This document shows, in pieces, positions 7,095-63,729 of a DNA stretch of 64,000 bases. Positions within the stretch are counted from its first letter, which is position 1; every line of letters begins with the position of its first letter. The stretch is from Chiloscyllium plagiosum (taxonomy: Eukaryota): NCBI RefSeq assembly GCF_004010195.1, contig NC_057719.1, positions 10,030,170-10,094,169 of the forward strand, given 5' to 3'. The position numbers and the translations under genes are program-made. Under the pieces are notes generated by a model, which was given only the letters and a program-made list of their open reading frames with translations, had not been told where the DNA came from and did not search any database.

Positions 7095-8887
7095 AAGTTA
7101 AATATATTCTATTGTTCGAAATCACAACACACCAGGTTATACTCCAACAGGTTGATTTGGACGCACTAGCTTACAGAGTGCTGCTCCTCCATCAGGTAGT
7201 TTAGATTAGATTACTTACAGTGTGGAAACAGGCCCTTCGGCCCAACAAGTCCACACTTGTCAGGCAGCAGTGCTAACCACTGTGCCACCGTGCCGCCCAC
7301 TAGTTGTGGACACAGAATTTATTGCAAAAGATTACAGCGTCGTACAGTGATATATTAAACAAACCTGGATTGTTGTTAAGTCTTTCATCTTTTAGAATAC
7401 AGGTTTCGGTTCATTAATATGCAAATCCCAGAACTTCGTTTAAATCACTTTCTCAAGATAATTTAAGGTTTTATAACAAAAAGGTGACATCTCAGCTCAG
7501 ACAGTGCATTAAAGGTGTGAGGTCAGAGTCTGTTTCCAAAGTGGAATTTACAAAATATTACATGGACTGGCTGCCTGCATTAATTGTCTATAGATTGTGC
7601 TTTCTTTTGAACAAAATAGAATGTATCAGCAAATATAATTCTGCAAATACAAATTCACTCCATAAACTTGTAAGTGTGTGTGTGTGTGCATGAGAGAGAG
7701 CGTGTGTGCATGTAAGTGTATGCATGTGAGTGTGAGTGCATGTGAGAGAATGCACGTATGTGTGTGAAAGCTTGGTAAAGTGTATGTGTGGGTGTGATGG
7801 AGTATAAGCCTGTGACAGGGTGTGCGCGTGGGTGTGAGTGTGGGAGCTGTATGTATGCACGTATGAGAGACAGCATGTGTATGAAAGAGGGTCTGCATGA
7901 GTGTGTGAGTATGCAAGTGTGTATAGGTGCTTGTGTGTGTGTTGGGGGGGGGGGTGTGATGGGGAAAGAGTGCCTAGTTAGTGGGGTCACCTGTAGTGCG
8001 ACGTGAACCCAAGGTTCCAGTTGAGTCCATCCTCATGAATACCGAACTTGGCTATCAGCCTCTGCTCGGCCACTTTGCATTGTTGACTATCCCAAAGACC
8101 GCCTTGGAGGATGATAACCCGAAGATTCGAAGCCGAATGCCCCAGACTGCTGTAGTGTTCCCCAACTGGGAGGGAACAGCCTTACCTGTTGATTGTTGTG
8201 GCATGCCAATTTTTCCACTGCCATAGCATCTGCTTGGTTTCGCCAATATACCATACCTCAGGGCATCCTTGCCTGCGGCGTATGAGATAGACAATGTTGG
8301 CCGAGTCATATGAGCACCTGTCGCGTACATAGTGGATGGTGTCCCCACATTTAATGGTGATATCTGTGTCGACACCCTGACACATCTTACAATAGTTGAC
8401 ATGACAGGGTTGTACACAATGCACAATCTGCAGGCAGTCAATGCAGACAGTCAATTCATATAATATTTTGTAAATTCCACTTTGGAAATAGAACCAGTCT
8501 GACTCAAGACTGGGATACAGACAGACTCTGACCTCACACCTTTAATACATTGTCTGAGCTTAGATGTCACCTTTTGTTATAAAACCTTAAGTGATCTCGA
8601 GAAGGTGACTTAAAAGAAGTTCTGGGATTTACATATTAATGAATCAAAGCCTGCACTCTAAAACACAAAAGGCTTAACAATCCAGGTTTGTTTAATATAT
8701 CACTGTGTGACACTGTAATCTTTTGCTATAAATTCTGTGTCTTATAATCTTAAACTCCAAAACCAGCTGATAAAGGAGCAGCGCTCCAAAAGCTAGTGCT
8801 TCCAAATAGACCTGTTGGACTATAATCTAGTGTTGTGTCACTTCTAACTTTGTCCACCCCAGTTCAACACCAGCTTCTCCACATCAT
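7095..8887 (-). mobile_element. Penelope-like retroelement (PLE) remnant with GIY-YIG endonuclease relic and inverted terminal (pLTR) repeats
   Basis: Minus ORF 8182-8454 CKMCQ...SANIVYLIR...CPEVWYIGETKQ (VYLI...YIGET GIY-YIG motif with preceding Cys cluster). 7115-7560 is the reverse complement of ~8460-8860. Confidence 0.85.
7673..7960. repeat. degenerate (TG)n/(GA)n microsatellite inside the PLE
   Basis: Direct observation. Confidence 0.9.
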
Positions 8888-9267
8888 AAACTCTATTAAG
8901 CATTCAGTGTGGAGTAGCCATTGAATGCTATGGAATCAGATATTACAGGAAAATGGGTACTATGAATCCTCAGTTGCCATAGAAGTCGACATTATAGCAT
9001 GCAGGAATTATGATTGCATGATATTAAAGTTGAAAAGAAGTGGCTGTTCACAGAACCGGTTTCTGTTAACCTTGATCCAATACTAACCACTTCATTGAAG
9101 CACAGAGACAAAAGTTTCTTTAAATTAGGAAGGTAGCATGGGTTAGCACAGTCTTGGTGGGTCAAAGGGCCTGGTTTTCTACTGTACTGTTGTGTGAAAT
9201 ATCACCAACACTCCTCATTCTGAGTGACCTCTAACTCTCATTTATTTATCTGGATCTACAATAGAGT

Positions 9268-9772
9268 TGTCAATTCAGGTCCAAGTCAATCAGTGAGACA
9301 AAAACGCAGACACCTATCTTCCTAAATAGAGTTTATTAACTACTAGGTTTTACTTTTAAAGCTCTTCTTTTCCTCTTTTTGTCATATCCATAAAGTGCTC
9401 TTGCACACAACTCAACATTTTCTTTTCCCATCACATTTTCTTTTTCACTGATTAACAGGCATCTAGATTGGGACATGAATAGGAAGGGCTCAGAGGAATA
9501 TGGGCCAAAAGCTGGCAAATAGAACTAGATCAGCTCAGGATATCTGATCGGTGCAGGTGAGTTGATCCAAAGGGTCTGTTTCCATTCAACTCTATGACAC
9601 TGTTATGATCACTGTAAATCATTTTCTAATTGATTAATTTACATGCAAAGTCTGTTAAGGGACTGCCAAGCCTTGCTCACACAGCTCTAACCTGTTGAAC
9701 TGTTATATCTACCCAGTTCATTAATTAATAAACTAACCCTAATCACATGCTTAACTATTTGCTTTATAAACA
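9268..9772 (-). repeat. 3' LTR of the copia element (TG...CA, AATAAA), interrupted by a CR1 3' fragment at ~9455-9600
   Basis: Starts TGTTTATAAAG 2 nt after purine tract aagaagaagaggggag; ends ...gaattgACA; AATAAA about 65 nt from the end. Confidence 0.75.
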
Positions 9773-10023
9773 GACTCCCCTCTTCTTCTTAACTAAAATC
9801 TTTTGAAGACATACAAACTAATAAAGGGGAAGCATAATAGGTTTTTTCATGTTCTCCACATCGCATCATAATATAACCAATCAGGAACAAAATTATATTT
9901 TTCTCACATTCCATATAATACAATGAATCTCAAAAATATTTGTTTTCTTTATTTGTACAAAAGTATGACACATTTAATTATCAGGCAACCCGACTAAAAA
10001 TGATTTGTTCTGACGTACACTTC

Positions 10024-10600
10024 TCATATCACCAGGGATTCCACTTTACAGATCTCCAATAATTTCTTGCCGCAAGTATCCATGTTTGTGAAACAATCTG
10101 ACAACGGGCGAATTGTGTCAGTCAAATTTATTTTGGAAATGCCTTTTCTTTCTACGTGTCCTTTATGCGAGCAAGGTTATTTCTCAACAATATCCCTTTG
10201 TTGATTGTACATTATCCCAAACAGAACAGTTATCAACATAACATTCTGTGGGCAAACATTTCTCAGACTGTCAGTTCTATGTGATTTCCTTTGGACTGTT
10301 GGATTAATATACCCCTGTATCTCTAACTTCTACTAGTACCATGGCTTCAGCAGCTAAAGTACTTTTAATGACTTTTTAAAATTTTCTTGAACAGGCAATA
10401 TGTATGACTCTTTCCAAGTAAGAACAGGCTAAATTCTGGTGTGCTCAAACAAATGAAAAGGACTTGCTTTATACCTGCTGCATCATCCCAGGCTGCAAAC
10501 TTGCATTTACATTTTTCTTGAATTTAATTTCTTTCATGTTTATTTACTCTCAAGATTGCCTCAAAATAGCAATAAGGGTATCCCATTTCCACATACCTTA
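10024..10600 (-). pseudogene. copia RT-RNase H tether and RNase H relic
   Basis: EAILRVNK...SRKF*KVIKSTLAAEAMVL...CYVDNCSVWDNVQSTK...RPLSDCFT matches the copia RNase H motifs STLAAE, DN.S and Q/PLAD.LTK; in-frame stops. Confidence 0.85.
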
Positions 10601-10893
10601 AGGGTGGCACAGTGGTTAGCACGGCTGCCTCATAGTACCAGGGTCTCAGGTTCAATCCCAGCCTTGGGAAACTGTCTGTGTGGAGTTTGCACATTCTCCC
10701 TGTGTCTGCGTGGGTTTCCTCTGGGTGCTCCAGTTTCCTCCCACAGCCCAAAGACGTGCAAGCCAGGTGAATTGGTCATGCTAAATTGCCCATTGTGTTA
10801 GGGGCATTAGTTAGAGGGGGAAATGGGTCTGGATGGGTTACTTGTCAGAGAGTCGGTGTGGACTTGTTGGGCCTGCTTCCGGAATCTAATCTA
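10600..10893 (+). mobile_element. HE1-type SINE inserted in the copia pol relic
   Basis: gggtggcacagtggttagcac A-box, ggttcaatccc B-box, aatctaatct tail. Confidence 0.9.
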
Positions 10894-10899
10894 AACAAA

Positions 10900-11090
10900 A
10901 ATTGGTAACAGGCCTCATCTGAGTGCACAACTAATTTAACTGTCCAATTTCTTTGATGTTTGCAAAATCATCGTGATCAACACTTTGCACATAAGACTTT
11001 ATTTAAAGTCACTACTAATTTGTTGTGTTTCATATCTAGTGTGATATATTTGAAGATCACTTAAATCTGACTTCCAAAAGTCCAGGTGCT
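10900..11090 (-). pseudogene. copia RT C-terminal relic
   Basis: FKYITLDMKH...VTLNK...IGQLN*LCTQMRP resembles copia RT FKY(L/I)GL.I.Q...IGQLNW...TRPD. Confidence 0.75.
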
Positions 11091-11580
11091 TCCTGAATGC
11101 TGCTATTGTGTTTGCTTCCATCACCTCTGCTGGCAGTGTGTTCCAGGCACTCACCATCCTTTGTGCGAAAAATGTGCCTCACACATCTCTTTTCAACTTT
11201 TGCCTTCTCACCTTGAACTTGTGTCCCCTAGTAATTGACTCTTCCACCTTGGGAAAAAGCCTCATACGTTCCAGTCTATCCATCCCATTTACAATCTTAT
11301 AAACTTCTATCAGGTCACCCTTCAACCTCCTGCATTCCAGTGAAAACAAACATTTCTTCATAGTTAAAATCCCCATACCAGACAATATCCTAGTAAATGT
11401 TTTTGTACCCTCTGCTAAGCATCCATATCTCTGTATTAAACCCTTTACTCTGTGATAATTCCCTCTGGTCCTAGACTCTCACACAGGGAAACAGACTTTC
11501 TGCATCCACCCTGTCAAGTCCTCTAAGATTCTTGTATGTTTCAATAAGGTCACCTCTCACTCTTCTAAACTCCAATGGCT
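11090..11580 (-). mobile_element. CR1-clade LINE 3' fragments
   Basis: LFSLECRRLKGDLIEVYKI..TRGHKF motif. Confidence 0.85.
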
Positions 11581-11677
11581 TGGCTTACTCACTGTCTCCT
11601 CAAAGTGACCAAATTGTTCATCGCATTGTAGGTGTTGTCTGTCTAGTGCCTTGCATTGTTTTAGTGAGATACTCCTA

Positions 11678-11993
11678 TTTGATTAGATTCCCTACGGTAT
11701 TGAAACAGGCCCTTCGGCCCAACAAGTCCACACCGACCCTCTGAAGAGTAACCCACCCAGAACCTTTCCCCTCTGACTAATGCACCTAACACTATGGGCA
11801 ATTTAGAATGGCCAATCCACCTGACCTGCACATTTCTGGACTATGGGAGGAAACCGGAGCACTCGGAGGAAACCCACACAGACACAGGAAGAATGTGCAA
11901 ACTCCACGCAGACAGTCACCGGAGGCTGGAATCGAACCTGGGACCTTGGTGCTATGAGGCAGCAGTGCTAACCACCGAGCCATTGTGCCACCC
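11678..11993 (-). mobile_element. HE1-type SINE
   Basis: Full head-core-tail homology. Confidence 0.9.
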
Positions 11994-12509
11994 TATTATC
12001 ATACCATTCCCTTTTAAACAAAGGCCAACAGCCTACCTCCCTTCCCTATTAACTGCTGAACCTGTATGTTCACTTTTCCTGTACTAGGACCCCCAAATCC
12101 TTCAGCTTTCTTCAGCCCTTCTCCACTTTAATAATATTCAGCTCTTCTATTCTTCCTGCCAAAGTGCATGGCCGACATTTTCCAACATTTTATTCATCCG
12201 GCAGGCTCTTGGCTTATCACTTGACCTGCTTATATTCCTCTATAGACTTTTTATCATTCTTGCTATTTCTGTTCCCTTCTTTGATAGTACATTCACTTCT
12301 CTCATCCAAGACATTGATACATGCTGTATATTATTGTGGCACCAGCACTGATCCCTGTGACACTCCAAACAGTTACAGGTTGCCATCACGAAATGCTCAC
12401 TTCATTGCAACACTTTGTCTTCTTTTCGTCAAACCCGAGTCCATGTTCATATACCATTTTAATATCATCCTATTAATTAGACTTATGCGCGTCACTTTAT
12501 CAGGCACCT

Positions 12510-12680
12510 TTTGTTTGTGCAATATATCGCATCAGTTGTATGACACTATGATCTTTTGCTATAAATTCTGTGTCCTATGATCCTGCCTCATGAGCCATCC
12601 GACAAAGGAGCAGCACTCTAAAAGCTAGTATTTTGAAATAAACCAATTGGACTATAATCTGGTGTTGTGTGATTTTTAAC
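12510..12680 (+). mobile_element. Penelope pLTR fragment with degenerate hammerhead motif
   Basis: Homologous to 8690-8850 (aaggagcagcactctaaaagctag). Confidence 0.75.
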
Positions 12681-12869
12681 ATGGTTCCAGTTGCCAGAGG
12701 TACTCTCTACCCTCACTCCTTTTAGCTACGTTTCTCTTTTTATTATAACATTTTCAGCCTGTATCTAGGTGGTCCCACATTGTCACTATCATTGAATCCT
12801 CTATTCTTTGTATTAGTGCTGAATGTCCCACTTGAGCTGTGAAGGTTTACTAAGAATAAATGCATTCCA

Positions 12870-13545
12870 AGGAAATTTTTATGACTTCTGGCATCTATTC
12901 CAAAAGTGTGGTACTTTGTGAAAATTTAACTCCAGTCAGCACCGGGGTCTAGCCACGTTTGGTACCTTAGCACAGTCCAACAACTTTAAAGGTGAGCACT
13001 GACTGAGAAATTTCCAAATAAAAATTTTACAACCTTGTATATCGTCTGTTAAATTCTATTATATATTCTCTGTGGAATACCAATCCCATTTTCTAAGTTT
13101 ATTAAAATCTGATCAGGCCTCATATATATATTTCATGTAAAGTTTGTCCATGCATTTTAATAGAATGTTCAATCCTTCTTCAATGCCCAGTTAGATTAGA
13201 TTAGATTACTTACAGTGTGGAAACAGGCCCTTCGGCCCAACAAATCCACACCGATTCGCCGAAGCGCAACCCACCCATACCCCTACATTCCCCCCTTATT
13301 ACCTAACACTACGGGCAATTTAGCAAGGCCAATTCACCTGCCCTGCACATCTCTGGACTGTGGGAGGAAACTGGAGCACCCGGAGGAAACCCCCGCAGGC
13401 ACGGGGAGAATGTGCAAACTCCACACAGACAGATGCCTGAGTCGGGAATTGAACCCGGGTCTCTGGTGCTGTGAGGCAGCAGTGCTAACCACTGTGCCAC
13501 CGTGCCGCCAGTTGTTGAGCTTCTAGCTCTGAGAATGCATCATGG
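12870..13545 (-). pseudogene. copia (GalEa-like) gag relic split by a SINE
   Basis: After excising the SINE at 13190-13509: FSELEAQQLGIEEGLNILLKCMDKLY..YEA*SDFNKLRK..EYIIEFNRRYTRL..LEISQSVLTFK..LDCA..VLTGV. Confidence 0.75.
13190..13509 (-). mobile_element. young-looking full-length HE1-type SINE
   Basis: ggcggcacggtggcacagtgg head, (tctaa)n tail, short flanking duplication (ccagtt). Confidence 0.92.
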
Positions 13546-13791
13546 TTCCAGTGGGCAACCACAATTCCAAGGACATTATTAGATTTTAGTTTTGTTAGTG
13601 GAGACATAGCCCAGGTCCTCATAGCTGCTTCCTCTTCTCATTGATGCTAATTTTCAGCTTCACAAAACATCCATAGGAATGTATATACTGAATCTCTGCA
13701 CATAGGTTCAGTTATTCTTCTTCAAAATAACTCCAATTGCAATCTTCTGTGTGAAAATATCTCTTCATTTCCAATCTTCACCTCTGAGAAG

Positions 13792-13807
13792 CCATTCTCT
13801 GTTCCTA
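13792..13807 (-). other. degenerate primer-binding site complementary to initiator tRNA-Met
   Basis: TAGGAACAGAGAATGG vs TGGTAGCAGAGGATGG, 12/16 identical, 1 nt after the 5' LTR end. Confidence 0.65.
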
Positions 13808-13808
13808 G

Positions 13809-13980
13809 TGTCAATTCTGATCCAGGCAGCTGGTGAAAGAGAAACCAAAATACCTTTCCCTTTGGATACAGTTTATTAACCACTCTCTTACAACTCTTTC
13901 CAGACTTCAAACACATCTAATACACCTTTACATCAACAAAATTCATTAATCAATTAACCTCAGTCATACACATAATCACT
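13809..13980 (-). repeat. 5' LTR of the copia element (internally deleted; 5' boundary uncertain)
   Basis: Shares the gttaataaact...gaattgaca end and the ggtta.tt.attaatgaa motif with the 3' LTR. Confidence 0.7.
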
Positions 13981-14106
13981 TGATAAATTATCAAGTGACC
14001 CGAAATTTATTCAGAATTCATAATAACTATTTAATAATGCAGAAAACGGATGAGCACATTGGAACACCACAGCACGAGATTGTAAAACTTATCTGCATTG
14101 ATCTTA

Positions 14107-14557
14107 TGGAGTTATAGAACCATTCAGCACGGTAACAGAACTTTTGACCCAACTCATTCATGCCGACATGGATTCCTAAACTGAACTAGTCCCATTTGCC
14201 TGTACTTGGCCTGCATCCCTCTGTAGCTTTCCTATCCATGTACTTGTCCAAATTACTTTTAAATGTTGTAATTGCATTCATCTCTACCACTTTGTCTGGC
14301 AGATTGTTCCACATATGCACCACCCCCTGTGTGAAAAAGCTGTCCTTTAGGTGCCTTTTAAATCTTTTCCCTCTCACCTTAAATATTTGACCTCTAGTTT
14401 TGCACTCCTCTATCCTGGGAAAAAGACCTTGGCTATTCACCTTATCCATGCCACTCATGAATTTATAAACCTCAATAAGGTCACCTCTCAGCCTCCAAGG
14501 CTCCCAGGAAAGAAATCCCAGGTTATCCAGCCTCTCCTTACAACTCAAGCCCTCCAG
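14107..14557 (-). mobile_element. CR1-clade LINE 3' fragment
   Basis: ORF 14186-14548 RLRGDLIEVYK...FFTQGVVHMWN. Confidence 0.9.
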
Positions 14558-14746
14558 TTTTGTTTGCTGTCAAATATTCCAAAGATTAGGTAGGATATAA
14601 GGAGAGTGGATAGCATCCCTGCCTCTGAAGTTGCAGCTCTGAATTCAAGTCCCAATACAGATGTTGTGTTGGTCAAGTAAGGTGCCTTCATACTGTAGCC
14701 AACAGTTTGACCACCAGCTTCAAGTTCTTGCTTATGTCATCCATGT

Positions 14747-16243
14747 AGAGTCATAGAGTACAGCGTGGAAGCAGACCCTTCGGTCCACCCGTCCATGCTG
14801 ACCAGATATCCCAACCCAACCTAGTCCATCTGCCAGCACCCGGACCATATCCCGCCAAACCCTTCCTATTCATATACCCATCCAAATTCCTTTTGAATGT
14901 TGCAATTGTACCAGCCTCCACCACTTCCTCTGGCAACTCATTCCATACACGTACCACTCTCTGTGTGAAAACGTTGCCCCTTAGACTCCTTTTATATCTT
15001 TCCCCTCTCACCCTAAACCTATGCCCTCTAGTTCTGGACTCACAGGGAAAAGACTTTGCCTATTTATCCTATCCATGCCCCTCATAATTTTGTAAACCTC
15101 TATAAGGTCACCCCTCAGCCTCCAATGCTCCAGGGAAAACAGCTCCAGCCTGTTCAGCCTCTCCCTATAGCTCAAATCCTCCAACCCTGGCAACATCCTT
15201 GTAAATCTTTTCTGAACCCTTTCAAGTTTCACAACATCTTTCTGATAGGAAGGAGAACGGAATTACATGCAATATTCCAACAGTGGCCTAACCAATGTCC
15301 TGTCAGCCGCAACATGACCTTCCAATTCCTGTACTCAATACTCTGACCAATAAAGGAAAGCATACCAAACGCCTTCTTCACTATCCTATCTACCTGCAAC
15401 TCCACTTTCAAGGAGCTATGAACCTGCATTCCAAGGTCTCTTTGTTCAGCAACAATCTCTAGGACCTTACCATTAAGTGTATAAGTCCTGCTAAGATTTG
15501 CTTTCCCAAAATGCAGCACCTCGCATTTATCTGAATTAAACTCCATCTGCCACTTTTTGGCCCATTGGCCCATCTGGACCAGAACCTGTTGTAATCTGAG
15601 GTAACCATCTTCGCTGTCCACTACACCTCTAATTTTGGTGTAATCTGTAAACTTACTAATTGTACCTCTTATGCTCGCATCCAAATCATTTATGTAAATG
15701 TCAAAAAGTAGAGGGCCCAGCACCGATCCTTGTGGCACTCCACTGGTCACAGGCCTCCAATTTGATTTGCAACCCTCCACCACCACCCTCTATCTTCTAC
15801 CTTTCAGCCAGTTATGTATCCAAGTGGCGAGTTCTCCCTGTATTGCTTGAGATCTAATCTTGCGAACCAGTCTCCCATAGGGAACCTTGTTGAATGCCTT
15901 ACTGAAGTCCATATAGATCACATCTACTGCTCTGTCCTCATCAATCCTCCTTGTTACTTCTTCAAAAAAGCTCAATCAAGTTTGTGAGACATGATTTCCC
16001 ACGCACAAAGCCATGTTGATTATCCTAATCAGGCCTTGCTATTCCAAATACATGTACACCCTGTCCCTCAGGATTCCCTCCAACAACTTGCCCACCACCG
16101 ACGTCAGGCTCACTGGTCTATAGTTCCCTAGCTTGTCCTTACCACCCTTCTTAAACAGCGGCACCACATTAGCCAACCTCCAGTCTTCCGGCACCTCACC
16201 TGTGACTATCGATGATACAAATATCTTAGCAAGAGGCCCAGCA
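14747..16243 (-). mobile_element. CR1-clade LINE (HER1-like), RT domain, frameshifted
   Basis: VPEDWRLANVVPLFKKG, NYRPVSLTS, YMDFSKAF, GVPQGSVLGPLLF, FFTQRVV motifs across ORFs 16039-14751. Confidence 0.96.
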
Positions 16244-17721
16244 ATGTAATTGAAAGAACATTGAAGCATCTGTACTTGAAATCCATAGCTCAAAACTAAA
16301 ATGTGCATAGAATGTACATGTTGTACGAGCAACTCAAACTCCCATCACTACAATCACGTAAGTTATATGGCCCAGTAACTGATCCTTCAATCCAACAACA
16401 CTCATTTGATTGTGCAGTGTCGGACAACAAACCCACATTCACAATGTATAGAATGGATTCATTTTTCTAATCAATCTGTTCAGAGATGTTATTACACACC
16501 TGTGGAGCAAGTGGGACTTGAACCTGGGCCTCTTGGTCTAAGAGTAGGGTCATTACCACTGCACCACAAGAGGGTCACTTAAAATGTTACCAAGGTTCTT
16601 TAAACATTATGGACTGCAATAAGGATAAACAATCAGGTTTGCGGATGGCAATGTGCTAAGATCATGAAAAAGAATGGTGATTCATTGTAAATACATTATT
16701 TTTTTAATATTCACTCTGGGATATGGGCAGTGTTGGCTGGGCCAGCATTTACTCCCTGGCTCTAATTGTGCTTGAGATCTATGCTCTACTGAAACCTCAA
16801 GTTCTTACGAAGAGAAGAGAGGATGAGTTTTACGTCACCTTCCAGCCAATCTTTATCAATGATGATCATGAGTAGACTATCTCGTCATCCTCACACAGTC
16901 CTTTGGAGCCCCTTGCAATTCAGTGCCTGAGGTACTCCATTGTGACTACATTTCAAAAGTACATCATTGCGCTATGTTAAAGCACTTTAGAGCCAAAGTC
17001 ATGAAAAGTACTTTATAAAGGCAAATCCTTAAACTGTGCAGACAATGAGATGTCAGCTTTGATTCCCATTCTATACTTATTTTCAGCTGGGCACCATGAG
17101 GCATGCAGAACTTGTGGAATAAATTGGGCATGGAAAAATATAATGTACAATCAGTAGAAAAAAAAAATCAAAGATTCCTCTTTTTGATCAATAGTTGTCC
17201 TGGAAAATAAGCCAAGTAAGAGCTGGATTGGATTCAACTACATTTTTGCCCTCTACAGCTCCAAAGTCAGCCAAGACCTACATTCCAGGTAAACATTGGA
17301 AGAATACTCCCTCTGGCAATGTAGCAGTCTGGCAATGTAACAGGCTGGCACTGCAGCAGAAGGCCATCAGCACTCATGAAACATTATCTCAGCATGTTTT
17401 CCAGAGAGGTGAGAAAATTGGAAAAAAAATGTAATTTGTAAGAGATAATTTAAAGGGAAAAGTAAATAGGCAGGTCTTTGAGCAATTTGCATGTTGCAGC
17501 ATAAATACACAAACACGTTAATAGATTACAAATGACAAAAGCTCATGTGCAGCCTGCTTGTCCAAGTTCATTACAACCAGATAGCTCTGCATCCGTGTCC
17601 TTATGAGTTCACAAAAGGACTGATATGTACTGAGAGCTCCAATGTACTCTGAATATCCAATACCCTTGTGTCCTGTGCATTTGATGATCTTTAAGCATTG
17701 TAAGACCATGAGACCCTAAGA

Positions 17722-20110: not shown

Positions 20111-23100
20111 CTTCCTCATGTGACACCAAATGGCAACAATGTGTACCATTTGAAAGATGCACTGCAGGAACTCACCAGGGCTCCTTCCACAATGCCTTTC
20201 AAACCCTTGGCCCTTACACCAAGAACAAGGGCTGTAGATGCATATGAACATTGAGAGTCATGGTTTAACAAATATGGAGATGGGTCTCTGAGGAATGCTG
20301 GGTATAACCGACAATCTGCTAATCACGTGATAGGATTCTGTTAGAAGGTTGGACTTCTCAGACTCAGAGATTGCAACTCCGCAGCCTTACCATCATGCAC
20401 TTACTGGGAACAGGCACTGTTTGAAAGAAATTCAGTAGTTTCTCTTCAGCTTGTGAAAAAACACATACAATAACAAACATCACTAAGTTCTCCTCCAAGC
20501 CACACATGATCCAGATGTGGAAATATATTGCAGTCCCTTGCCTGTCACTGAGTCAAACCTCTTGCACAGCATTCAGGTTATGCCTTCACTAAATGGACTG
20601 CGGTTACATACAAAGCGTGTTCACCACCACCTCCTCAATTAGGGAAGGGAATTAAATGCTGGCCCAGCCAGCAGTGCCACATCCTGTGGACAAATCGACC
20701 AAAATGGAAGGTGAAAACGAGATGCTCGTTTTTGACTGGCACAGACTCAACGGACCAAAGGGCCTTTATCTTGCTGCAGACTGCTTTGGCTCCATGAAAA
20801 TTAGAAAATGAAGGGTCAGCAAATCTTCCTGCCTCTGATCATCATTTGACGGAAGCTGCTGGAAAAGGAGCACAGGTGCGAGCTTCAGAAAAATCTTGTC
20901 CAATGTTGAGGGTGAGCAAGATTGAAGAAAATGAAAATAACTTTGCCTGACTTCTACCTCAGGCGAACACTGCATAAACGGTCATTCTGGAAGAGTGTGG
21001 CATACCCAGGATAGGAGTTTAGCCAATTTCAGAGGAGAAAGGGCTGACCTTTGTTTTTAAGAAAGATCTCAGTGCTGAAAGATGGTTGAAAATAAATCTG
21101 ACCAAATCAAAAATTAGCAAATGTGACGTAAGGAAAATAAAACCTCCACAAGACTTGTAGTTGGGGTCTGGACTGCACCGCCTGGAGGTGTGGGGGAGAC
21201 AGAGTTGATTGAGGCACTCAAGATAATTACTTGAATAGAGTCAGTGTTCAAGGACACAGGGAAAGGAAAGAGATTGGCACTAAGTCATAATGTTCATTGG
21301 TGTTGACACAATGGAATCTGAACCGTAAAGGTGTTTCACTCAGCCGTGTGTGCACTTTTATTCTATCAAAACAGGCACATTAAATTTAAGAAATACAAGC
21401 AAACAAGACCAGAAATTCCAACACAACAGATTGAGGAGCCTGGTAATTGGCAATATCGTACAGTAATTGTCTCCTTCTGAAGTTCCATCACCTTAAGATC
21501 AAATCTAAATGCACACTCCCATTGCACCAAACAGCAATGGGGAAAGTAATTTAATCATCAGTACAATGATTTCTTTATTGTTTCAACAAGATGCAAACAT
21601 TATAACACAATTATTCACATTTGCAGAAACAATCAAAATTTAATGCAACTTATAAATTGACCTATGATTGCATCAAACACTGCTGCAGAGTTTCAGTGAA
21701 CCACCACACACCCTGCAGGGCCAACGTGGGAGAATGTACACTGGAGAGGGGAGAGTAGTCGCTCTGGGGAGCTGGAGGTCTGCACCTGTTAGTGGGGGCT
21801 GGAACCAGTTCACAGGTAGCCACTGGGACTGTCAGCAACAGAGGTAAACTGCGAGGAGGAACCCATCTCGATGCTTGGCATGGGTTGGAATTGTTGACAT
21901 TTGATATAGGGCTACAAAAGAAAACAAAAAATCAATGGGTGGGATCATCCCTTCCCTCAAGGTGGCCACAGAATCTCTTGCCTCCTCATCAAAACAATTC
22001 CCCTTTTGGTGATCAGTTTATAGCTCCTTCCAGGTTTTAGTCCCCCACCACCCTGTACAGCAACCTGGCAAAGTGAGTGACCACCTTCGGGAAACAGAAA
22101 TGAAGGCGAGGGGGTCCCTCTTGCGACACAGTGGCAGTGTCCCTACTGGAAGGTAGGGTTCAAGTCCCACCTGCTCCACAGGGGTATAATAACATATCTG
22201 AACAGGTTGATTTGAAAAACAGGTAAAAGTCTTTTTAAAAAAGAGGAACAAGCGTGACCAACTTATTGCATTGTGATGGCGAGGGAAGGCGGGGACTTCC
22301 ATTTGCCAGAATATGGGGGGAAATGGAGTCAGAGTTTGTTGCGGGGGAAGGCAGGCATGAGGTTGCAGAAAGCTTCTGGCTTGGATCTCCTAGTCCTACA
22401 CTCCTTAATCCATATCGCAGCCAGCAAACTCCTAAAACAAATTCTATCTCATTATTACAGGACAACATGGTTGAGCAGCCTGGGTCTCTGGCAATGATCT
22501 CAAGTTCTCTTATAGGTCAGCAGATTCTGGGCAGAGTGGGACTTCAGTGTCAGGGCCCATGATATTCTGAGAGCCCTGTTGGTCTGTAGGATCTTGTTCT
22601 GTGGGCTTTCCCGCTGCTGGGTTAGGGGGTGTTTGCAGTTACTGAAGACGCCTGATCCAAAATCCAGTGCAGAAAACATTAAATCTCAGCCAATAAATAA
22701 AATAAATGAACCCTAGGCCCCAGCCTCATGTCAGCTCACACACTCCCAGAACCTTTCCATGCCTAACCATGCCACGCTATGCCTCATCCAACATTCCCCA
22801 CAACTCTTCACACTGTCCACATCAACAAATGCCTCTCGACCAACCTCCTCTAGCCTCCATACCACCCTCCAACCCAATTTCTGTTCCTCTATTCAACCCT
22901 CATATATCCTCATACCTGAATGCCAACCTATGCCATTCTAATCACTCTCATGATCTCTTGTAGCTCTATATCAACAGTATCAACACATTCCTAGCCGTGC
23001 CCTAAACCCACCATCCTTTGCCATCACATCTGCCATGTCAACTTATTCAGATTCACTCTGGGTAGACTTTGGGACTCAGACTGTAATAAAATAAAGTTCA

Positions 23101-32750: not shown

Positions 32751-33306
32751 AATTTCCTTTTAGACTGGCCTGCCATTCTACTTTTAGTGAAGTGAAACAC
32801 TCTGGGAATTTTCCTGAGCCTTGTTAATGCAAAAATATTTCAATATGCACCAAGAGCACTTCAGCAATATCTGTGCTTGCTGTGCTCTGTCCACTTCATA
32901 CACCCTTATGCTTTGTGAGTAAGAAGGACCTCGAGAGTGCAATTGTCTAATAGCTCTTAAAAGTATTCTTTTTATGCATGATACTCTAAAATTGCGATTA
33001 TTTTTAGCTAAACTATAAAAATTTTGTTCATTTCACTTTTAAATAATCTGATTTTATTTTCATTTCCTGTTTACTTTGAAAGCAACTCAAGAGGTTTTCT
33101 GTAAGTGGTACTTAATGGAAGCATGCACGGAAGGGAGATTAGTGTATCATGGACCATTCTGTAGTGCTTGAAGCATTAGCCTGTCAATGGCCCCAAGCTT
33201 GCTGCATCACAGTTATTACACAGAGCATTTGGGCAGGATCTTTTAGATGGTGGAGTTTCCTGTGCTACCAGTCAGATACCACTTTCCCTGCAGGCATTTC
33301 CCACTT

Positions 33307-50465: not shown

Positions 50466-51564
50466 TCTACCCTCGCAGGGAGTCCATTCCATTCTCCCAC
50501 CACCCTCTGGGAGAAATGGTTTTTCCTTAAATCACCTCTAAACTTCCTGCCTTTCATTTTAAAAGATTTACCCCTTGTTTTTAATCTTATAGATTTTTAA
50601 TACATTTTTCTGAAAATACTCGTGTTGTCACCACCAGTACATCTGAATGCTGCTTATCTTTTCATAATCAAGTTGCAAGGTAGGTTCAAGAATTCAGCTC
50701 AGGCAACAGATAATCAAAACCATGATTTGTGCACATGATATTTTAAACTCTAACATTAAATTCATTCCTTCACTAAGGATCAAACTAAATCCGAAACTAT
50801 CTTTTGGAATCTCCAACTACAACTGGCTCCAATGACTACTCATGGCTAGCTTTATGACATGTGAATGCTTTGGTTTTTACTACTGGAATGCTATACGTAA
50901 ATTGCCCTGAACAAATTCAATAAATGTTCACTTGGCATCATGTAATTGGTGTCCTACATAGTGTCAGGAAGGCTTGAACAAACCAATTCCTGCATGATTC
51001 ATTCCTAGTGTCTCGGAAGCAATTATTGCCTGTTTCTCATGGCCCAGAGGGCAGTTAAGAGCCAACCACATTGCTGTGGAGACACATGTAGGCCAGAACA
51101 AATAAAGGCAGCAGTTTCCTTTCCTGAAGGACATTAGTGAATCAGATGGACTTTTCCCTGACAATCAACAAAGGTTTCATGGTTATCATTAAGCACTTAA
51201 TTCCAGAGCTTTTTTTTAAAAAAAGATTGAATTCAAATTCACAAGGAATTGAGCACAGATCACAGAAATATTAAACACCAAACCTCCCTGGGTCCCTGGA
51301 TCAATAGATTAGCGATAATGCCACGATGTTATCCCTTTCCTCCTTAATCTTTGGATTTAGTTGTGCTGACTCTAGGATGGACAAAGTCGGGAACAAACAC
51401 TACCTGAAGGATGGCAGCACTGTCAGGGTGCATCTTCCATACATCTCATAGAAGTTACAACGTTTAAAAGATATTTGGATAAGTAGATTCATAAGAAATG
51501 TTTGGTGGGACAAGTTTAGTGGAAGGATCTATTTCCATGCTATGACTCAACAAGTTATTCTCAC

Positions 51565-56482: not shown

Positions 56483-56759
56483 CTACATTGTGATGGGTAA
56501 CCAAGAATGCTCAGTCCAAGAACAAAAGGTGTAGTTTATGCTTTTATAAGCAGGTCTAAGCGGCATCTTTTGAAATCAAAGAAGACTCACGAGTATAGGA
56601 ATGCAAGTAGTCCATTCAGCCCATCCAATTTGCCTCAGCATTCGATGTGATCATGGCTGATTGAACATCTTGTAGTGATTGGAATCAGGTGGATCTTGTT
56701 GACTACAAGATCCTTGATTGGGGCTGTTAACCTGGGCCAATCTGGAAGCCCTGACTGAC

Positions 56760-57900
56760 CAATAAAAAAAGGGGAAATAAAGATTTGTGCACTTTGTGTC
56801 TTTCACTGTGTCTCACACCTGCACACACACACCATGGGTGCTGGGGAAAAAAAAAAAGAAACAAAAAAAAAATATATAAATAGGGATTCACACAGCACTG
56901 CCCTTTGGTGGGAAAGGCACTGCTGGTCACAGGCCACTTGGGTGTTTGTGCAAGGACTCTCCTTGAAGGTGACTATCCCTAGACAGCTGCCAAAAAAAAA
57001 AGGGGAAATAAAGATTCGTGCACTTTGTGTCTCTCACTGTGTCTCACAGCTGCACACACAAAAAAAGGAGTGTACCATGGGAAAAAAAAAGGGAAAAAAA
57101 AAAAGGGGAAATTGATTAAAGATTTGTACACCTGGTACCTTTCACTGTGTCTCATGCACACAGACGGTGTTGGTGTTGGTGTTGGTGTTGGTCTGCACAC
57201 ACACAACATGGGTGCTGGGGAAAAAAATAAGCACTACTACAGTTAGGTGGTAGCATAGGAAGAAAGAAAAAAAAGAAAAAAGAACAGGGGAAATTGAATA
57301 AAGATTTGTACACCTGGTACCTTTCACTGTGTCTCACGCATACAGACACCATGGGTGCTGGGGAAAATATAAGCACTACTGGAGTTAGGTGGTGGTGTTG
57401 GGGTAAAAATAGAACAGGGGATTGACTCAGCATTGCCCTCTGTCGAGAAGGGCATTGCTTATCACTGACGACTCGGATGTTTCTTTTCTCCCTGGTGGTG
57501 AAATAAAACAAAGATTTATGCACTTGTTCTTCACTGTGTTCTCCATCTGCACAGACACGACACGGATACGGGGGACAAATAAGCAATACCGTTGTTAGGC
57601 AGTAGTGTGGGGGAAAATAAAAAAGGGGTGTCTGGGGTTCTGCTAAAAAATACAAAGATAAAAAGGGGATTCACTCAGCACCGCGCTCTGTTGAGGAGGG
57701 CACTGCTTGTCACTGGCCACTTAGGGGTTTCCTTCCTGGTGGTGAAATATGAATAAAGATTCCTCCAATCATTTTCTCTCACTATGTTCCACACCTGCAC
57801 ACACACAACATGGGTGCTGGGTAATAAATAAGTACAACAGCTGTCTGGTGGTAGTGCAGGGTAAGAAAAAGTATAAACAGGGATTCCAAATCCCCTAAGA
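56760..57900 (+). repeat. irregular tandem array of ~120-250 bp units with A-tracts and conserved hairpins
   Basis: Recurring aataaagatt(t/c)gtgcac..tcactgtgtctcacacctgcacacacac(c/a)atgggtgctggggaaaa, about 6 times. Confidence 0.85.
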
Positions 57901-58599
57901 AAAACGAAAAAGAAAAAAAAATATAAACAGGGGATTCAGAGAATCTCCTGAATTCAGGACTGAATTGTGTGCTGGCTGGCCACAGCCACTATACTGTGGG
58001 GAAGAAATTAATTCCCTGGACTATAAGACATTTCCTAGCATTTTTATTCTTTATTTTTGTGTTCCTGGGTGTCTTTTCTTTAACTGGACTGTATGAAAAA
58101 GAAAAAGGAAAAGAAAAATAAAAACAGGGGATTTTGAACCACCTCAGTTCAGGTGACTGACTCTGAGATGGCTGGCCTCACAGCCAGTGAGTTAGTGTTG
58201 TTTTTTTTTTGGTAAATGGTTTCTGAATTGGCTGATCCAGACAGCCAGCTTGTTACTGTTGTTCCTCCTTGGAGACTGATTTCTGGGCTGGCTGACCACA
58301 CAGTTGTATTTCAGTTCTCGTGGGGAACTGTTGTTTCAGTGGCTGGTTGTAGACTATGTGTTACTCTTTTTGTTGATTTTGATGCAGGTCTTAGCCCTTG
58401 TATTATGGTTTTTAGTGTCTGCACTTTCTTTTTGCATGTGTTTTGACTTTTTGGTGTTTCGACTGAGTCCCTGAGAGTCAACTGCACATTTACAAGTGAA
58501 CTGTGTCTCTGTGAGTGGGCCTGGGCTTCTGTGGATGGACCAGGTCTCCATAGAAACTGAACACCTGTGTGTGTGCTGTGAGGTCTGCATTCGCTGCAT

Positions 58600-58676
58600 A
58601 CTGGTGTGGAATCCACATACTGGCATGGATTCCACATACGGATGTGGACTCCGCATACGGGCATGGACTCCGCATT
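58600..58676. repeat. ~20-bp tandem repeat (tgga[ac/tt]tcc[ag]catac), about 4 copies
   Basis: Direct observation. Confidence 0.8.
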
Positions 58677-58739
58677 ATTGATGGTTGGTTTTATCACCTG
58701 TGCTGTCTTGTGTACCCCTGAGTCTGGCAGGCCTTACTG

Positions 58740-59095
58740 CGAGCCGGAAGGTTCATAGGTCATCCTGAAAGCTGTCACTCAGTGAGCCAGCCAGTGGGTA
58801 GGCCATCCAAATGCTGGTCACCCCGAGAGCTGGAAGATGGGTCGGCCATCCCCATGCCAGTCGCTCTGAGGACCGGAAAGGAAGTGGGGTAGACCATCCC
58901 CATGCCGGTCGCCCTGAGGGCCGGAAGGTGAGGAGGCCACTCCGAGAGCCAGAAGGTGGGTAGGCCACCCCGATGCCAGTCACTCAGAGCCAGAAGGTGG
59001 GTAGGCCATCCCGATGCCAGTCGCTCAGAGCCAGAAGGTTGGTAGGCCATCCCGATGCCAGGCGCTCTGGGAACTGGAAGGTGGGTAGGCCACCT
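58740..59095. repeat. ~41-bp GC-rich minisatellite (gagccagaaggtgggtaggccatcccgatgccagtcgctca), about 8 copies
   Basis: Direct tandem units. Confidence 0.9.
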
Positions 59096-61110: not shown

Positions 61111-63054
61111 CTTAAGACATACAGATGTATTGGTTGTGTTAACTGGCAGGCTTTTGGAAATTGATACTGAACCTATCTGGTTGCATTATGTGTGCGTGCA
61201 TGTGGGACTCCCTCGGAACAAAAAATCGCATTTACTCATGGCTTAACACAGAAGGACAGAATATAAGAGCAGGAGGAGACCTGCTTCACTATCCAATGAC
61301 CTTGCTGATCAGCCAACTCAGTAATATAAAACAAAGAACTGTGGAGGCTGGAAATCCGAAACAAAATCTGAAATTGCTGGAGAAACTCAGCTGGTCTCGT
61401 GAAATGGAGAGAGGAACCGGGTTAATATTTTAGGTCCAGGACCTTTCTTCAGAACACATAGAGCCCCAAGCTGGCGGTTGATGGCCTAGTAGTATTATCA
61501 CTGGGCTATTAATCCAGAGACCCAGGTAATGTTCTGGGGACCTAGGTTCAAATCCTGCCATGCAGATGGTAGAATTTCAATTCAGTAATAGTCTGGAATT
61601 AAAAAGCTTATGATGACCATGAAACAATTGCAAATTGTTGGGGGTGGGGAAACCCATTTGATTCACTAATGCACTTCAGGGAAGGAAATTCGTTATCCTC
61701 ACCTGGTCTGGCCGACACATGACTCCTGACCTCATGTAGTTGACTCTTAACTGCCCTCTGAACTATTAGGGATGGGCAATACATGTTGGCTCTGAGCTAG
61801 CTGAGTCACTGTCATGTACTATGCACGGGTGAATAAAGAGTGACTTGGTGATGGGATACTGGCCTTTCTGGAGTTATTTTAGAAAGCACCATTGGAACTC
61901 TGTTTGAATGAATGAAAAAGGATTCACGCGATTCTCAAGCTCAATTAGGGACGAACAACAAGTGCTGGCCCAACCAGCGACACCCACATCCCCTGAATGA
62001 ATGAATAAAACAAACTCCTGCTGCTTGTTCAGAAAATACAAGCCGACACGCACTTCAGTACCTATCCAGCATTCATTCTGCACCAATTTTCAATGATTAC
62101 AATCTATTCAGGGGCTACTAAGCTGAACAGACAAACAAAGATCAGCTGATCAGCTATGAAGATTAAAGATAGCAACAAGGCAATTTTGTTCCCAAGCAAA
62201 TTTCACTGGGTGCCTGCAGTCTCCTTCACTGATTCACCCTCTTCATTCCGCAACAGCTCTCTGGCAGCAATCAGCCCAAATGTTGTTAGAATATGAATTG
62301 CAAAAATTGATAAAGATATTTGCCTCGAATCCAAAGATATTTGGATATAGTATTTAAAGCCATCAATCACTCTCCTACCTTTGTTATAGAGTATAACACA
62401 TCGATGTTGAGTCAGCAGTACTTTGGCTTTAAAGCCCTCATCCATCTGTCCAAATCCCTCTTGGCCTTGTCCCTCCCTGTCGCCGCCAACTTCCCAACAA
62501 CATTCCCAAATCTCAACACTCCTCTTGTCCCAACTTCCATGCTTTAATCCCTTCATGCTTGGTGGCTGTTCCTTTCAGCAGCTTCAGGCCCACAGCTTTG
62601 GAATTCCTTCACAAAACCTCTCTGCCGTCCATTTCTGTCTTGCTCCTGCAATGAGTGTTGGTTAGCTAAGTTGGCTAGCTAGTCATGTTTGTAATGCAGA
62701 GTGACACAGACAGCATGGGTTTAATTCCAGCTGAGGTGACTATGAAAGATTCTCCTTTTCAACCTCTCCCCTTGCCTGAGGTGTGGTGACCCTCAGTTGT
62801 TACTCACATTGCCTGGGAAGATGATGGCCTGGTGGTATGATCACTGGGCTACTCACCCAGAGACCCACGTAATGTTCTGGGGACCTGGGTTTGAATCCCA
62901 CCATGAATTCAAAAAATAAATTTTGTAAATAAGAGTCTAATGATGATCAATTGTCAGGAAAAACCCATGTGGTTCACTAATGTCCTCTTGGGAAGGAAAC
63001 TACTGTCCTTACCTGGTCCAGTCTGCATGTGATGCCAGACCCACACCAATGTTA

Positions 63055-63268
63055 GCATCAAGGCACTTTACCTGAATGCTCGTAGCATTCATAACAAAGC
63101 AGACGAACTAATGGCACAGATCATTGTGAATGATTATGATGTAGTAGGGATCACAGAGACGTGGTTACAGGGGGGTCAGGACTGGCAGTTAAACATGCAA
63201 GGGTTTTCAACTTATCGAAAAAACAGGGAGGTGGGCAGAGGGGGCGGGGTTGCCTTGTTAGTTAAGAA
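63055..63268 (+). mobile_element. CR1-clade LINE ORF2 APE-endonuclease N-terminus, running into the gap
   Basis: ALYLNARSIHNKADEL..YDVVGITETWL..YRKNREVGRGGGVALLVK, uninterrupted. Confidence 0.92.
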
Positions 63269-63729
63269 NNNNNNNNNNNNNNNNNNNNNNNNNNNNNNNN
63301 NNNNNNNNNNNNNNNNNNNNNNNNNNNNNNNNNNNNNNNNNNNNNNNNNNNNNNNNNNNNNNNNNNNNNNNNNNNNNNNNNNNNNNNNNNNNNNNNNNNN
63401 NNNNNNNNNNNNNNNNNNNNNNNNNNNNNNNNNNNNNNNNNNNNNNNNNNNNNNNNNNNNNNNNNNNNNNNNNNNNNNNNNNNNNNNNNNNNNNNNNNNN
63501 NNNNNNNNNNNNNNNNNNNNNNNNNNNNNNNNNNNNNNNNNNNNNNNNNNNNNNNNNNNNNNNNNNNNNNNNNNNNNNNNNNNNNNNNNNNNNNNNNNNN
63601 NNNNNNNNNNNNNNNNNNNNNNNNNNNNNNNNNNNNNNNNNNNNNNNNNNNNNNNNNNNNNNNNNNNNNNNNNNNNNNNNNNNNNNNNNNNNNNNNNNNN
63701 NNNNNNNNNNNNNNNNNNNNNNNNNNNNN
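63269..63729. other. assembly gap (461 N)
   Basis: Run of N. Confidence 1.

Follow-up and report, generated by a model that had tools for sequence, protein, structure and literature searches.

We examined a 64,000-nucleotide stretch of the genome of the shark Chiloscyllium plagiosum (NCBI RefSeq assembly GCF_004010195.1, contig NC_057719.1, positions 10,030,170 to 10,094,169 of the forward strand; hereafter the window, numbered from its first letter). Between positions 9268 and 13991, the minus strand carries the remains of a long terminal repeat (LTR) retrotransposon of the Ty1/copia superfamily. We read the locus as a dead copia copy, likely of the GalEa clade, that probably arrived at full length and has since decayed where it landed, and we put the probability of this combined reading at roughly three in four. 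The copia identity itself, judged from sequence comparisons, is well supported. No open reading frame (ORF) of at least 100 codons covers the relic, consistent with a first-pass annotation that had described it as invisible in the ORF track. The parts named there (5' LTR end, primer-binding site [PBS], gag, reverse transcriptase [RT], RNase H, polypurine tract, and 3' LTR) were recovered on the minus strand in the order claimed. They are listed below in the direction of the element, with amino acid (aa) positions counted on P0036, the nearest relative found, and with E values from domain hidden Markov models (HMMs).

13809 to 13991, minus strand: remnant of the 5' LTR, ending in CA, with AATAAA about 65 nucleotides (nt) short of that terminus; outer edge lost
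13792 to 13807, minus strand: decayed tRNA-Met-type PBS, 8/12 to the GalEa PBS, 2 nt from the LTR end
13510 to 13690, minus strand: probable N-terminal gag relic, weak, with an approximate upstream edge; local alignment score of 35 with aa 1 to 80 of P0036
12877 to 13190, minus strand: gag relic, aa 65 to 173 of P0036, in two frames; tblastn E, 1.4e-9; HMM E, 4.6e-11 and 4.2e-5
10898 to 11090, minus strand: late RT relic, aa 1182 to 1260 of P0036, with FKY, IGQLN, and TQMRP in place of TRPD; HMM E, 0.002 and 0.03
10030 to 10393, minus strand: RNase H relic, aa 1350 to 1467 of P0036, in two frames, with KSTLAAE and with SDCFT in place of ADCLTK
9775 to 9790, minus strand: polypurine tract, read from the sequence, 2 nt before the 3' LTR
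9268 to 9772, minus strand: 3' LTR, TGT...CA, 505 bp including an insert from a long interspersed element (LINE) and ∼160 bp without a partner in the 5' LTR

Together, these pieces cover aa 65 to 173 and 1182 to 1467 of P0036, and about 1,000 of its ∼1,470 codons have no counterpart in the relic. Besides protease and integrase, whose absence had already been remarked on, the relic has lost the zinc finger of gag and the first two-thirds of RT, so the description of the element as structurally complete does not stand; nor were its 5' edge and a target-site duplication found. By subtraction, the copia-derived share is ∼2.3 kb of 4.7 kb, and about half of the locus is younger DNA from LINEs and short interspersed elements (SINEs). 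An AT-rich tail separates the RNase H relic from the purine tract. The seven frame pieces contain 12 stops in 316 codons, with stops in six of the seven and frame changes between pieces, which fits long neutral decay. The copy is a real, old, internally deleted copia fossil and has no present function.

Copia homology and terminal repeats

Searched with phmmer, with X at its stops, the RNase H relic returned 14 matches among 1.84 billion proteins (best E, 1.7e-9), 13 of which align to it. Seven of the matches were checked; three contained RVT_2, two of these with integrase upstream of RT, and three were short pieces without a family. All three RT-bearing matches were thus of the RVT_2 type, which speaks against a Gypsy or BEL/Pao element. 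The RVT_2-type homology of RT and RNase H reaches the relic through its relatives, without a direct Pfam match. The order of integrase before RT is likewise seen in relatives (rve precedes RVT_2 in P0013 and P0018), the relic's own integrase being deleted.

From the phmmer matches we gathered 120 longer relatives and built a profile from the 76 that were full length and intact. Run over the whole window, this profile found RNase H (44.7 bits) and gag (27.5 and 9.9 bits) and nothing else above 2 bits, so that the window holds no second copia remnant by this measure. Domain HMMs for the gag N terminus, mid-gag, the zinc-finger region, protease, integrase, RT, and RNase H were run on positions 9200 to 14100. 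Together with the profile, they located gag, late RT, and RNase H on the minus strand, arranged as in copia elements, with RNase H matching at 10393 to 10042 (E, 8.8e-16 and 0.011). Over the same interval, the gag N terminus, zinc-finger region, protease, integrase, and early RT gave no match (best E values of 1.1 to 5.6; protease, 1.2; integrase, 3.6).

The piece at 13510 to 13690 was accordingly not detected by the N-terminal gag HMM. In comparison with P0036, weak gag homology begins near 13690, and the frame of this piece continues into 13190 across a nested SINE. An ATG within the PBS was considered as the gag start and rejected, as it belongs to the tRNA complement. No match was obtained when P0036 alone was compared with metagenome contigs, when the alignment was searched against viral contigs, or when Rfam was run on positions 8500 to 15000.

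The two LTRs share the end AATTGACA, located at 13809 in the 5' LTR and at 9268 in the 3' LTR. The block at this end (13885 to 13809 versus 9345 to 9268) is identical at 53 of 77 positions, including AATAAA and the terminus, and a block farther upstream (13991 to 13907 versus 9758 to 9677) is identical at 57 of 80. For both blocks, none of 2,000 dinucleotide shuffles scored as well, and four other pairings failed. The end block was also the top match among 3,189 tiles of the window, with a score of 55 versus 32 for the best unrelated tile. Two direct LTRs therefore enclose the PBS and the polypurine tract, with the outer edge of the 5' LTR lost. The 5' start had been placed at 13980, which is internal to the LTR: homology reaches 13991, and by the register of the two LTRs the start should lie near 14005, a place without a TG. 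Two alternatives were rejected: a 5' LTR register extended to 14100, for which 634 of 2,000 shuffles scored as well, and a displaced LTR start at 14557 to 14746, for which 1,079 did. Two stretches of the 3' LTR on the minus strand, 9676 to 9602 and 9451 to 9346 (∼160 to 180 bp), are partly purine rich and have no partner in the 5' LTR; they reflect either another insertion or a loss from the 5' LTR.

A chance resemblance of motifs in DNA that is old and AT rich, or a domesticated gene, would agree with the lack of a direct Pfam match. We consider it exceedingly improbable given the phmmer E value of 1.7e-9 among 1.84 billion proteins, the seven colinear pieces, the stops in six of them, and the absence of an Rfam match. 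A chance origin is refuted by the phmmer search, the 76-relative profile, and the LTR shuffles.

Probable affinity to GalEa elements

The PBS-like site at 13807 to 13792 reads TAGGAACAGAGAATGG and agrees with the published GalEa site, TGGTAGCAGAGC, at 8 of 12 positions. On its own this match is weak, as 372 sites of such quality occur in the window. Extended to 16 positions, the site matches what we take to be the 3' complement of the initiator tRNA-Met at 12, a quality reached by 11 sites in 128,000 positions. Because 8/12 matches are so common, the site draws its weight only from its position and from this presumed extension.

Features given for metazoan GalEa elements are TGT...CA borders, the PBS above, DTGC/DSGC/DTAC, KARLVA, (Y/H)VDD, TRPDI, SDAS, and ADCLTK (PMC5445492). 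Further features and the range of the clade in fishes are described in PMC3587641, and GalEA is placed in copia Branch 1 in PMC2774666. Like GalEa1, CoRex1/2, Cico1, zebrafish Zeco1, and Olco1 as portrayed in these sources (PMC3587641, PMC5445492), the relic has what is probably a decayed tRNA-Met-type PBS directly after the LTR, a purine tract with a GGGGAG-like run at its end, putative TRPD- and ADCLTK-like remnants, and the order gag-RT-RNase H. TGT and CA bound its 3' LTR and CA ends its 5' LTR, the start of which is not preserved. It differs from them in that it is dead and half deleted, matches the PBS at only 8 of 12 positions, and retains no zinc finger, protease, integrase, or 5-bp target-site duplication. 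The deleted regions are those that would hold the gag zinc finger, the DTGC/DTAC protease, the DD35E integrase, and KARLVA and YVDD of RT. Its 3' LTR, ∼355 bp without the LINE insert, is also longer than the 133 to 217 bp given for CoRex1/2. The remnants TQMRP and SDCFT lie where they are expected, and SDAS is not recognizable. Fungal GalEa elements, with a conserved hairpin site replacing the PBS and a CQPEA motif, do not fit a relic that carries a tRNA-type PBS remnant and TQMRP.

The nearest relatives carry KARLVA, DIK(S/A)AF, HVDD, TRPD, SDAS, and D(S/T)AC or one-letter variants of them, and DSAC, DTAC, or DSGC is present in 68 of the 76 relatives. Among 14 related DNA loci, seven have the GalEa PBS with no more than one difference in the first 11 bases (the exact 12-mer in two), while an exact GalEa PBS following a CA was found in none of 52 more distant loci (L027 to L078). 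P0036 is an intact single ORF of 1,472 aa in a cluster of nine, on Logan contigs of 2.9 to 5.1 kb, most of them ∼5.07 kb. It is 47% identical to the relic over 156 columns and is its sister in both trees that we made, a quick one of 54 rows and a careful one of 23 rows (22 of the 53 relatives were kept for run time). Unlike the relic, P0036 is intact, and it ranks first for only two of the seven pieces, so that the sister link is modest. In the careful tree, the relic and P0036 (97/83) fall within a group (94/98) that holds P0042, an element of the porcelain crab Petrolisthes; its neighbors in the trees are marine elements bearing GalEa motifs. Grouping the relic instead with the L027 group, distant copia loci of about 8 kb without the GalEa PBS, was rejected (p-AU, 0.005). 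From these comparisons, we regard a GalEa affinity of the relic as likely.

Loci of the L027 type (L027, L029 to L033, and most of L036 to L078) are copia-type loci of roughly 8 kb with the RNase H motif KIQ(R/K)VVTSTL(A/S)AE, and they form a long, fully supported branch in the careful tree. A further relative, P0053, is named DNA polymerase epsilon subunit 2 of Nymphon striatum and has copia integrase and RT domains; it is probably a gene model fused with an element.

Membership in another Branch-1 or marine copia clade would be compatible with a tree that has no named reference, with an RNase H motif of wider distribution, and with a PBS matching at only 8 of 12 positions. We find it quite unlikely, as the nearest relatives have the motifs tabulated for metazoan GalEa, the GalEa PBS is exact in two and nearly so in five more of the 14 related loci, and GalEa is the only clade tabulated for sharks (PMC11889832).

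Several observations weigh against a GalEa copy that was inserted whole. The Pfam check that had been proposed for the relic came out negative, with none of the seven frame pieces matching a copia family. A word-seeded protein search with the relic gave no match, and one of the 14 phmmer matches was an unrelated ankyrin protein. Neither tree contains a named GalEa, Hydra, CoMol, CoMar, or Mtanga element, and the branch leading to the relic is long (1.43). P0036 came first for just two of the seven pieces among 348 comparisons, and the STLAAE motif, being present in the distant L027-type loci as well, is not specific to GalEa. Finally, even with the LINE insert discounted, the two LTRs are unequal in length by ∼160 bp, and no target-site duplication linking the two ends was found at five candidate starts, although a 5-bp duplication could be erased by ∼20% decay per copy and the 5' edge is undefined.

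Nested repeats, internal deletion, and age

Repeats nested in the relic were marked by self-comparison of the window, in which LINE pieces were flagged at 11081 to 11572 and 9452 to 9601. The inserts are as follows.

13188 to 13513, minus strand: tRNA-type SINE inside gag, with the 6-bp duplication AACTGG; mean identity of 79% over 13 further copies from the window
12513 to 12681, minus strand: fragment of a dispersed repeat, 78% identical to 8686 to 8848 and to other copies
11440 to 12512, minus strand: CR1-like LINE fragments, found by tblastn with the RVT_1-bearing LINE ORFs of the window; they carry a SINE at 11676 to 11997
11081 to 11411, minus strand: 3' fragment of a CR1-like LINE, adjoining the copia RT and lacking the last 140 to 150 nt; right break of the internal deletion
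10592 to 10901, plus strand: SINE in the opposite orientation, between RT and RNase H
9452 to 9601, plus strand: 3' tail of a CR1-like LINE in the 3' LTR, with the 6-bp duplication CAGTGA; mean of 72% identity to four other copies

A 6-bp duplication accompanies both the gag SINE and the LINE tail of the 3' LTR, so both were inserted later than the copia copy. Between the gag pieces and late RT lie 1.6 kb of other repeats, and the LINE that adjoins RT stops short of its own 3' end: position 11094 pairs with 14894 in a copy ending at 14746, and 11081 pairs with 33446 in a copy ending at 33306. Copying of LINEs starts at the 3' end, so the loss of this 3' end should postdate the insertion. The simplest reading of these junctions is a single deletion that ran from inside the CR1-like LINE into late RT after insertion.

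One alternative is a non-autonomous family, moved by the proteins of an intact partner, whose copies were without protease, integrase, and most of RT before they inserted. Such a family would have kept the parts needed in cis for mobilization, which are the parts preserved here (LTRs, PBS, and polypurine tract). Internally deleted non-autonomous families are common among LTR elements. As the right break lies inside a LINE copy without its own 3' end, which fits a deletion after insertion, we think such an origin has little chance of being correct.

It is also conceivable that the two halves of the relic (5' LTR, PBS, and gag; RT, RNase H, polypurine tract, and 3' LTR) derive from different GalEa-type insertions that were joined by a larger deletion or by recombination between LINEs. 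The junction is indeed occupied by LINE DNA, no target-site duplication is present, and the LTRs match in just two blocks, at ∼70%, and differ in length. In contrast, the two halves share their best overall relative: P0036 comes out on top for the main RNase H piece as well as for one gag piece, and it totals 213 bits, versus 166 for the next relative. No other copia remnant occurs in the 64 kb, and copia is scarce in most sharks (PMC11889832), which makes two neighbors on the same strand improbable. On balance, we judge an origin from two insertions unlikely.

For a single copy inserted whole, the course of events may be outlined from copia biology and from the junctions. The parent would have produced one Gag-Pol protein and used the host initiator tRNA-Met at the PBS to prime minus-strand DNA and the polypurine tract to prime the plus strand, and integration would have left two identical LTRs. 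LINE pieces would have entered the 3' portion of gag before a deletion of roughly 3 kb started inside the CR1-like copy, removed its 3' end, and finished in late RT.

The LTRs have diverged by a Kimura two-parameter distance (K2P) of 0.39 ± 0.06 over 157 sites, probably an underestimate since only the alignable blocks were used. This corresponds to 88 million years (My) at 2.2e-9 substitutions at each site per year and 194 My at 1e-9. The rate of 2.2e-10 per site per year that is assumed for sharks in PMC4422223 would give 881 My, which is impossible. It is important to note that if the two halves came from different insertions, the LTR date would be meaningless. The nested LINE pieces have mean identities of 68 to 72% to other copies and the SINEs have 79%, which fits a copia copy no younger than the oldest layer of repeats in the window. 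Thus, the element is old, with a very wide age range.

Other features of the window and GalEa in sharks

The relic had been placed in an intron, and no exon was identified in the window that would bear this out. A splice-site scan, Pfam on 23 exon candidates (one weak match; E, 0.016), Atlas on one, and PDB on four named no gene. Among the candidates, 17259 to 17408 (plus strand) is an open frame between fairly strong splice-like sites that overlaps a 16-bp tandem repeat and has no Pfam match. Its residues 15 to 38 weakly resemble the sea-cucumber lectin CEL-III (E, 0.0023, with no single stretch passing), probably by chance. The segments 21712 to 21911 (minus strand), 22034 to 22152 (plus strand), and 50593 to 50679 (plus strand) are among the most exon-like in nonrepeat DNA; none received a name from Pfam or PDB, and the first received none from Atlas either.

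The SINE of the window is presumably akin to HE1, a trait of the repeat landscape that would suit a shark host. HE1 and HER1 are described as a SINE/LINE pair of sharks and rays (PMC3747384). At 7113 to 7603 and 8409 to 8885, long inverted repeats flank a decayed ORF (8182 to 8541, minus strand), with a TG-rich tract between them; together they appear to have the layout of a Penelope-like element. We take the ORF to be GIY-YIG-like in appearance, with no Pfam match, and the repeat at 12513 to 12681 to be a Penelope-like terminus, which Pfam did not confirm. Low-complexity and minisatellite arrays with periods of 19 to 48 bp and several internal repeats occupy 56759 to 57988 and 58596 to 59094. 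An assembly gap (461 N in the window) falls at 63263 to 63727, near the start of a LINE endonuclease ORF at 63033.

Copia elements have been counted among the superfamilies present in chondrichthyans (PMC4350176) and reported in five sharks (PMC11889832). In Additional file 3 of PMC11889832, GalEa clusters number seven in Scyliorhinus canicula (719 copia copies) and three in Carcharodon carcharias (210 copies), and unassigned copia copies are listed for Stegostoma (one), Chiloscyllium (one), and Rhincodon (two). The clusters of the catshark and the white shark probably share their clade with the relic and come from its host group. They were found with LTRharvest, which favors little-damaged copies, and the relic, with LTRs ∼30% diverged, would probably escape it; the survey itself relied on such copies and states that it may have missed ancient remnants (PMC11889832). 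None of the papers listed by a literature search described this locus, which does not prove that no description exists. GalEa in sharks is thus already on record, and the relic is an ordinary fossil copy. Of what the first-pass annotation had proposed, the copia identity held up in the phmmer and profile searches and the GalEa affinity is retained as likely, whereas the novelty that it implied falls away, since the clade is already tabulated for two sharks (PMC11889832).

Alone, the relic, a single dead copy from a clade whose presence in sharks has been reported before, is of little weight, and it reveals no new mechanism. We also considered, as a rather doubtful proposition, that the GalEa lineage entered cartilaginous fishes ∼100 My ago or more and that the parent was close to the still-intact P0036 family, whose branch is 0.07 from the common node. 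If this were true and the host of P0036 were not a shark, the relic would mark an ancient horizontal transfer into sharks that can be dated. With a shark as the host, copia would have persisted vertically for a long time where LTR-finding surveys see almost none. The modest value of the relic is as a time marker, and such relics could be used to test whether GalEa elements were inherited in cartilaginous fishes or arrived sideways.

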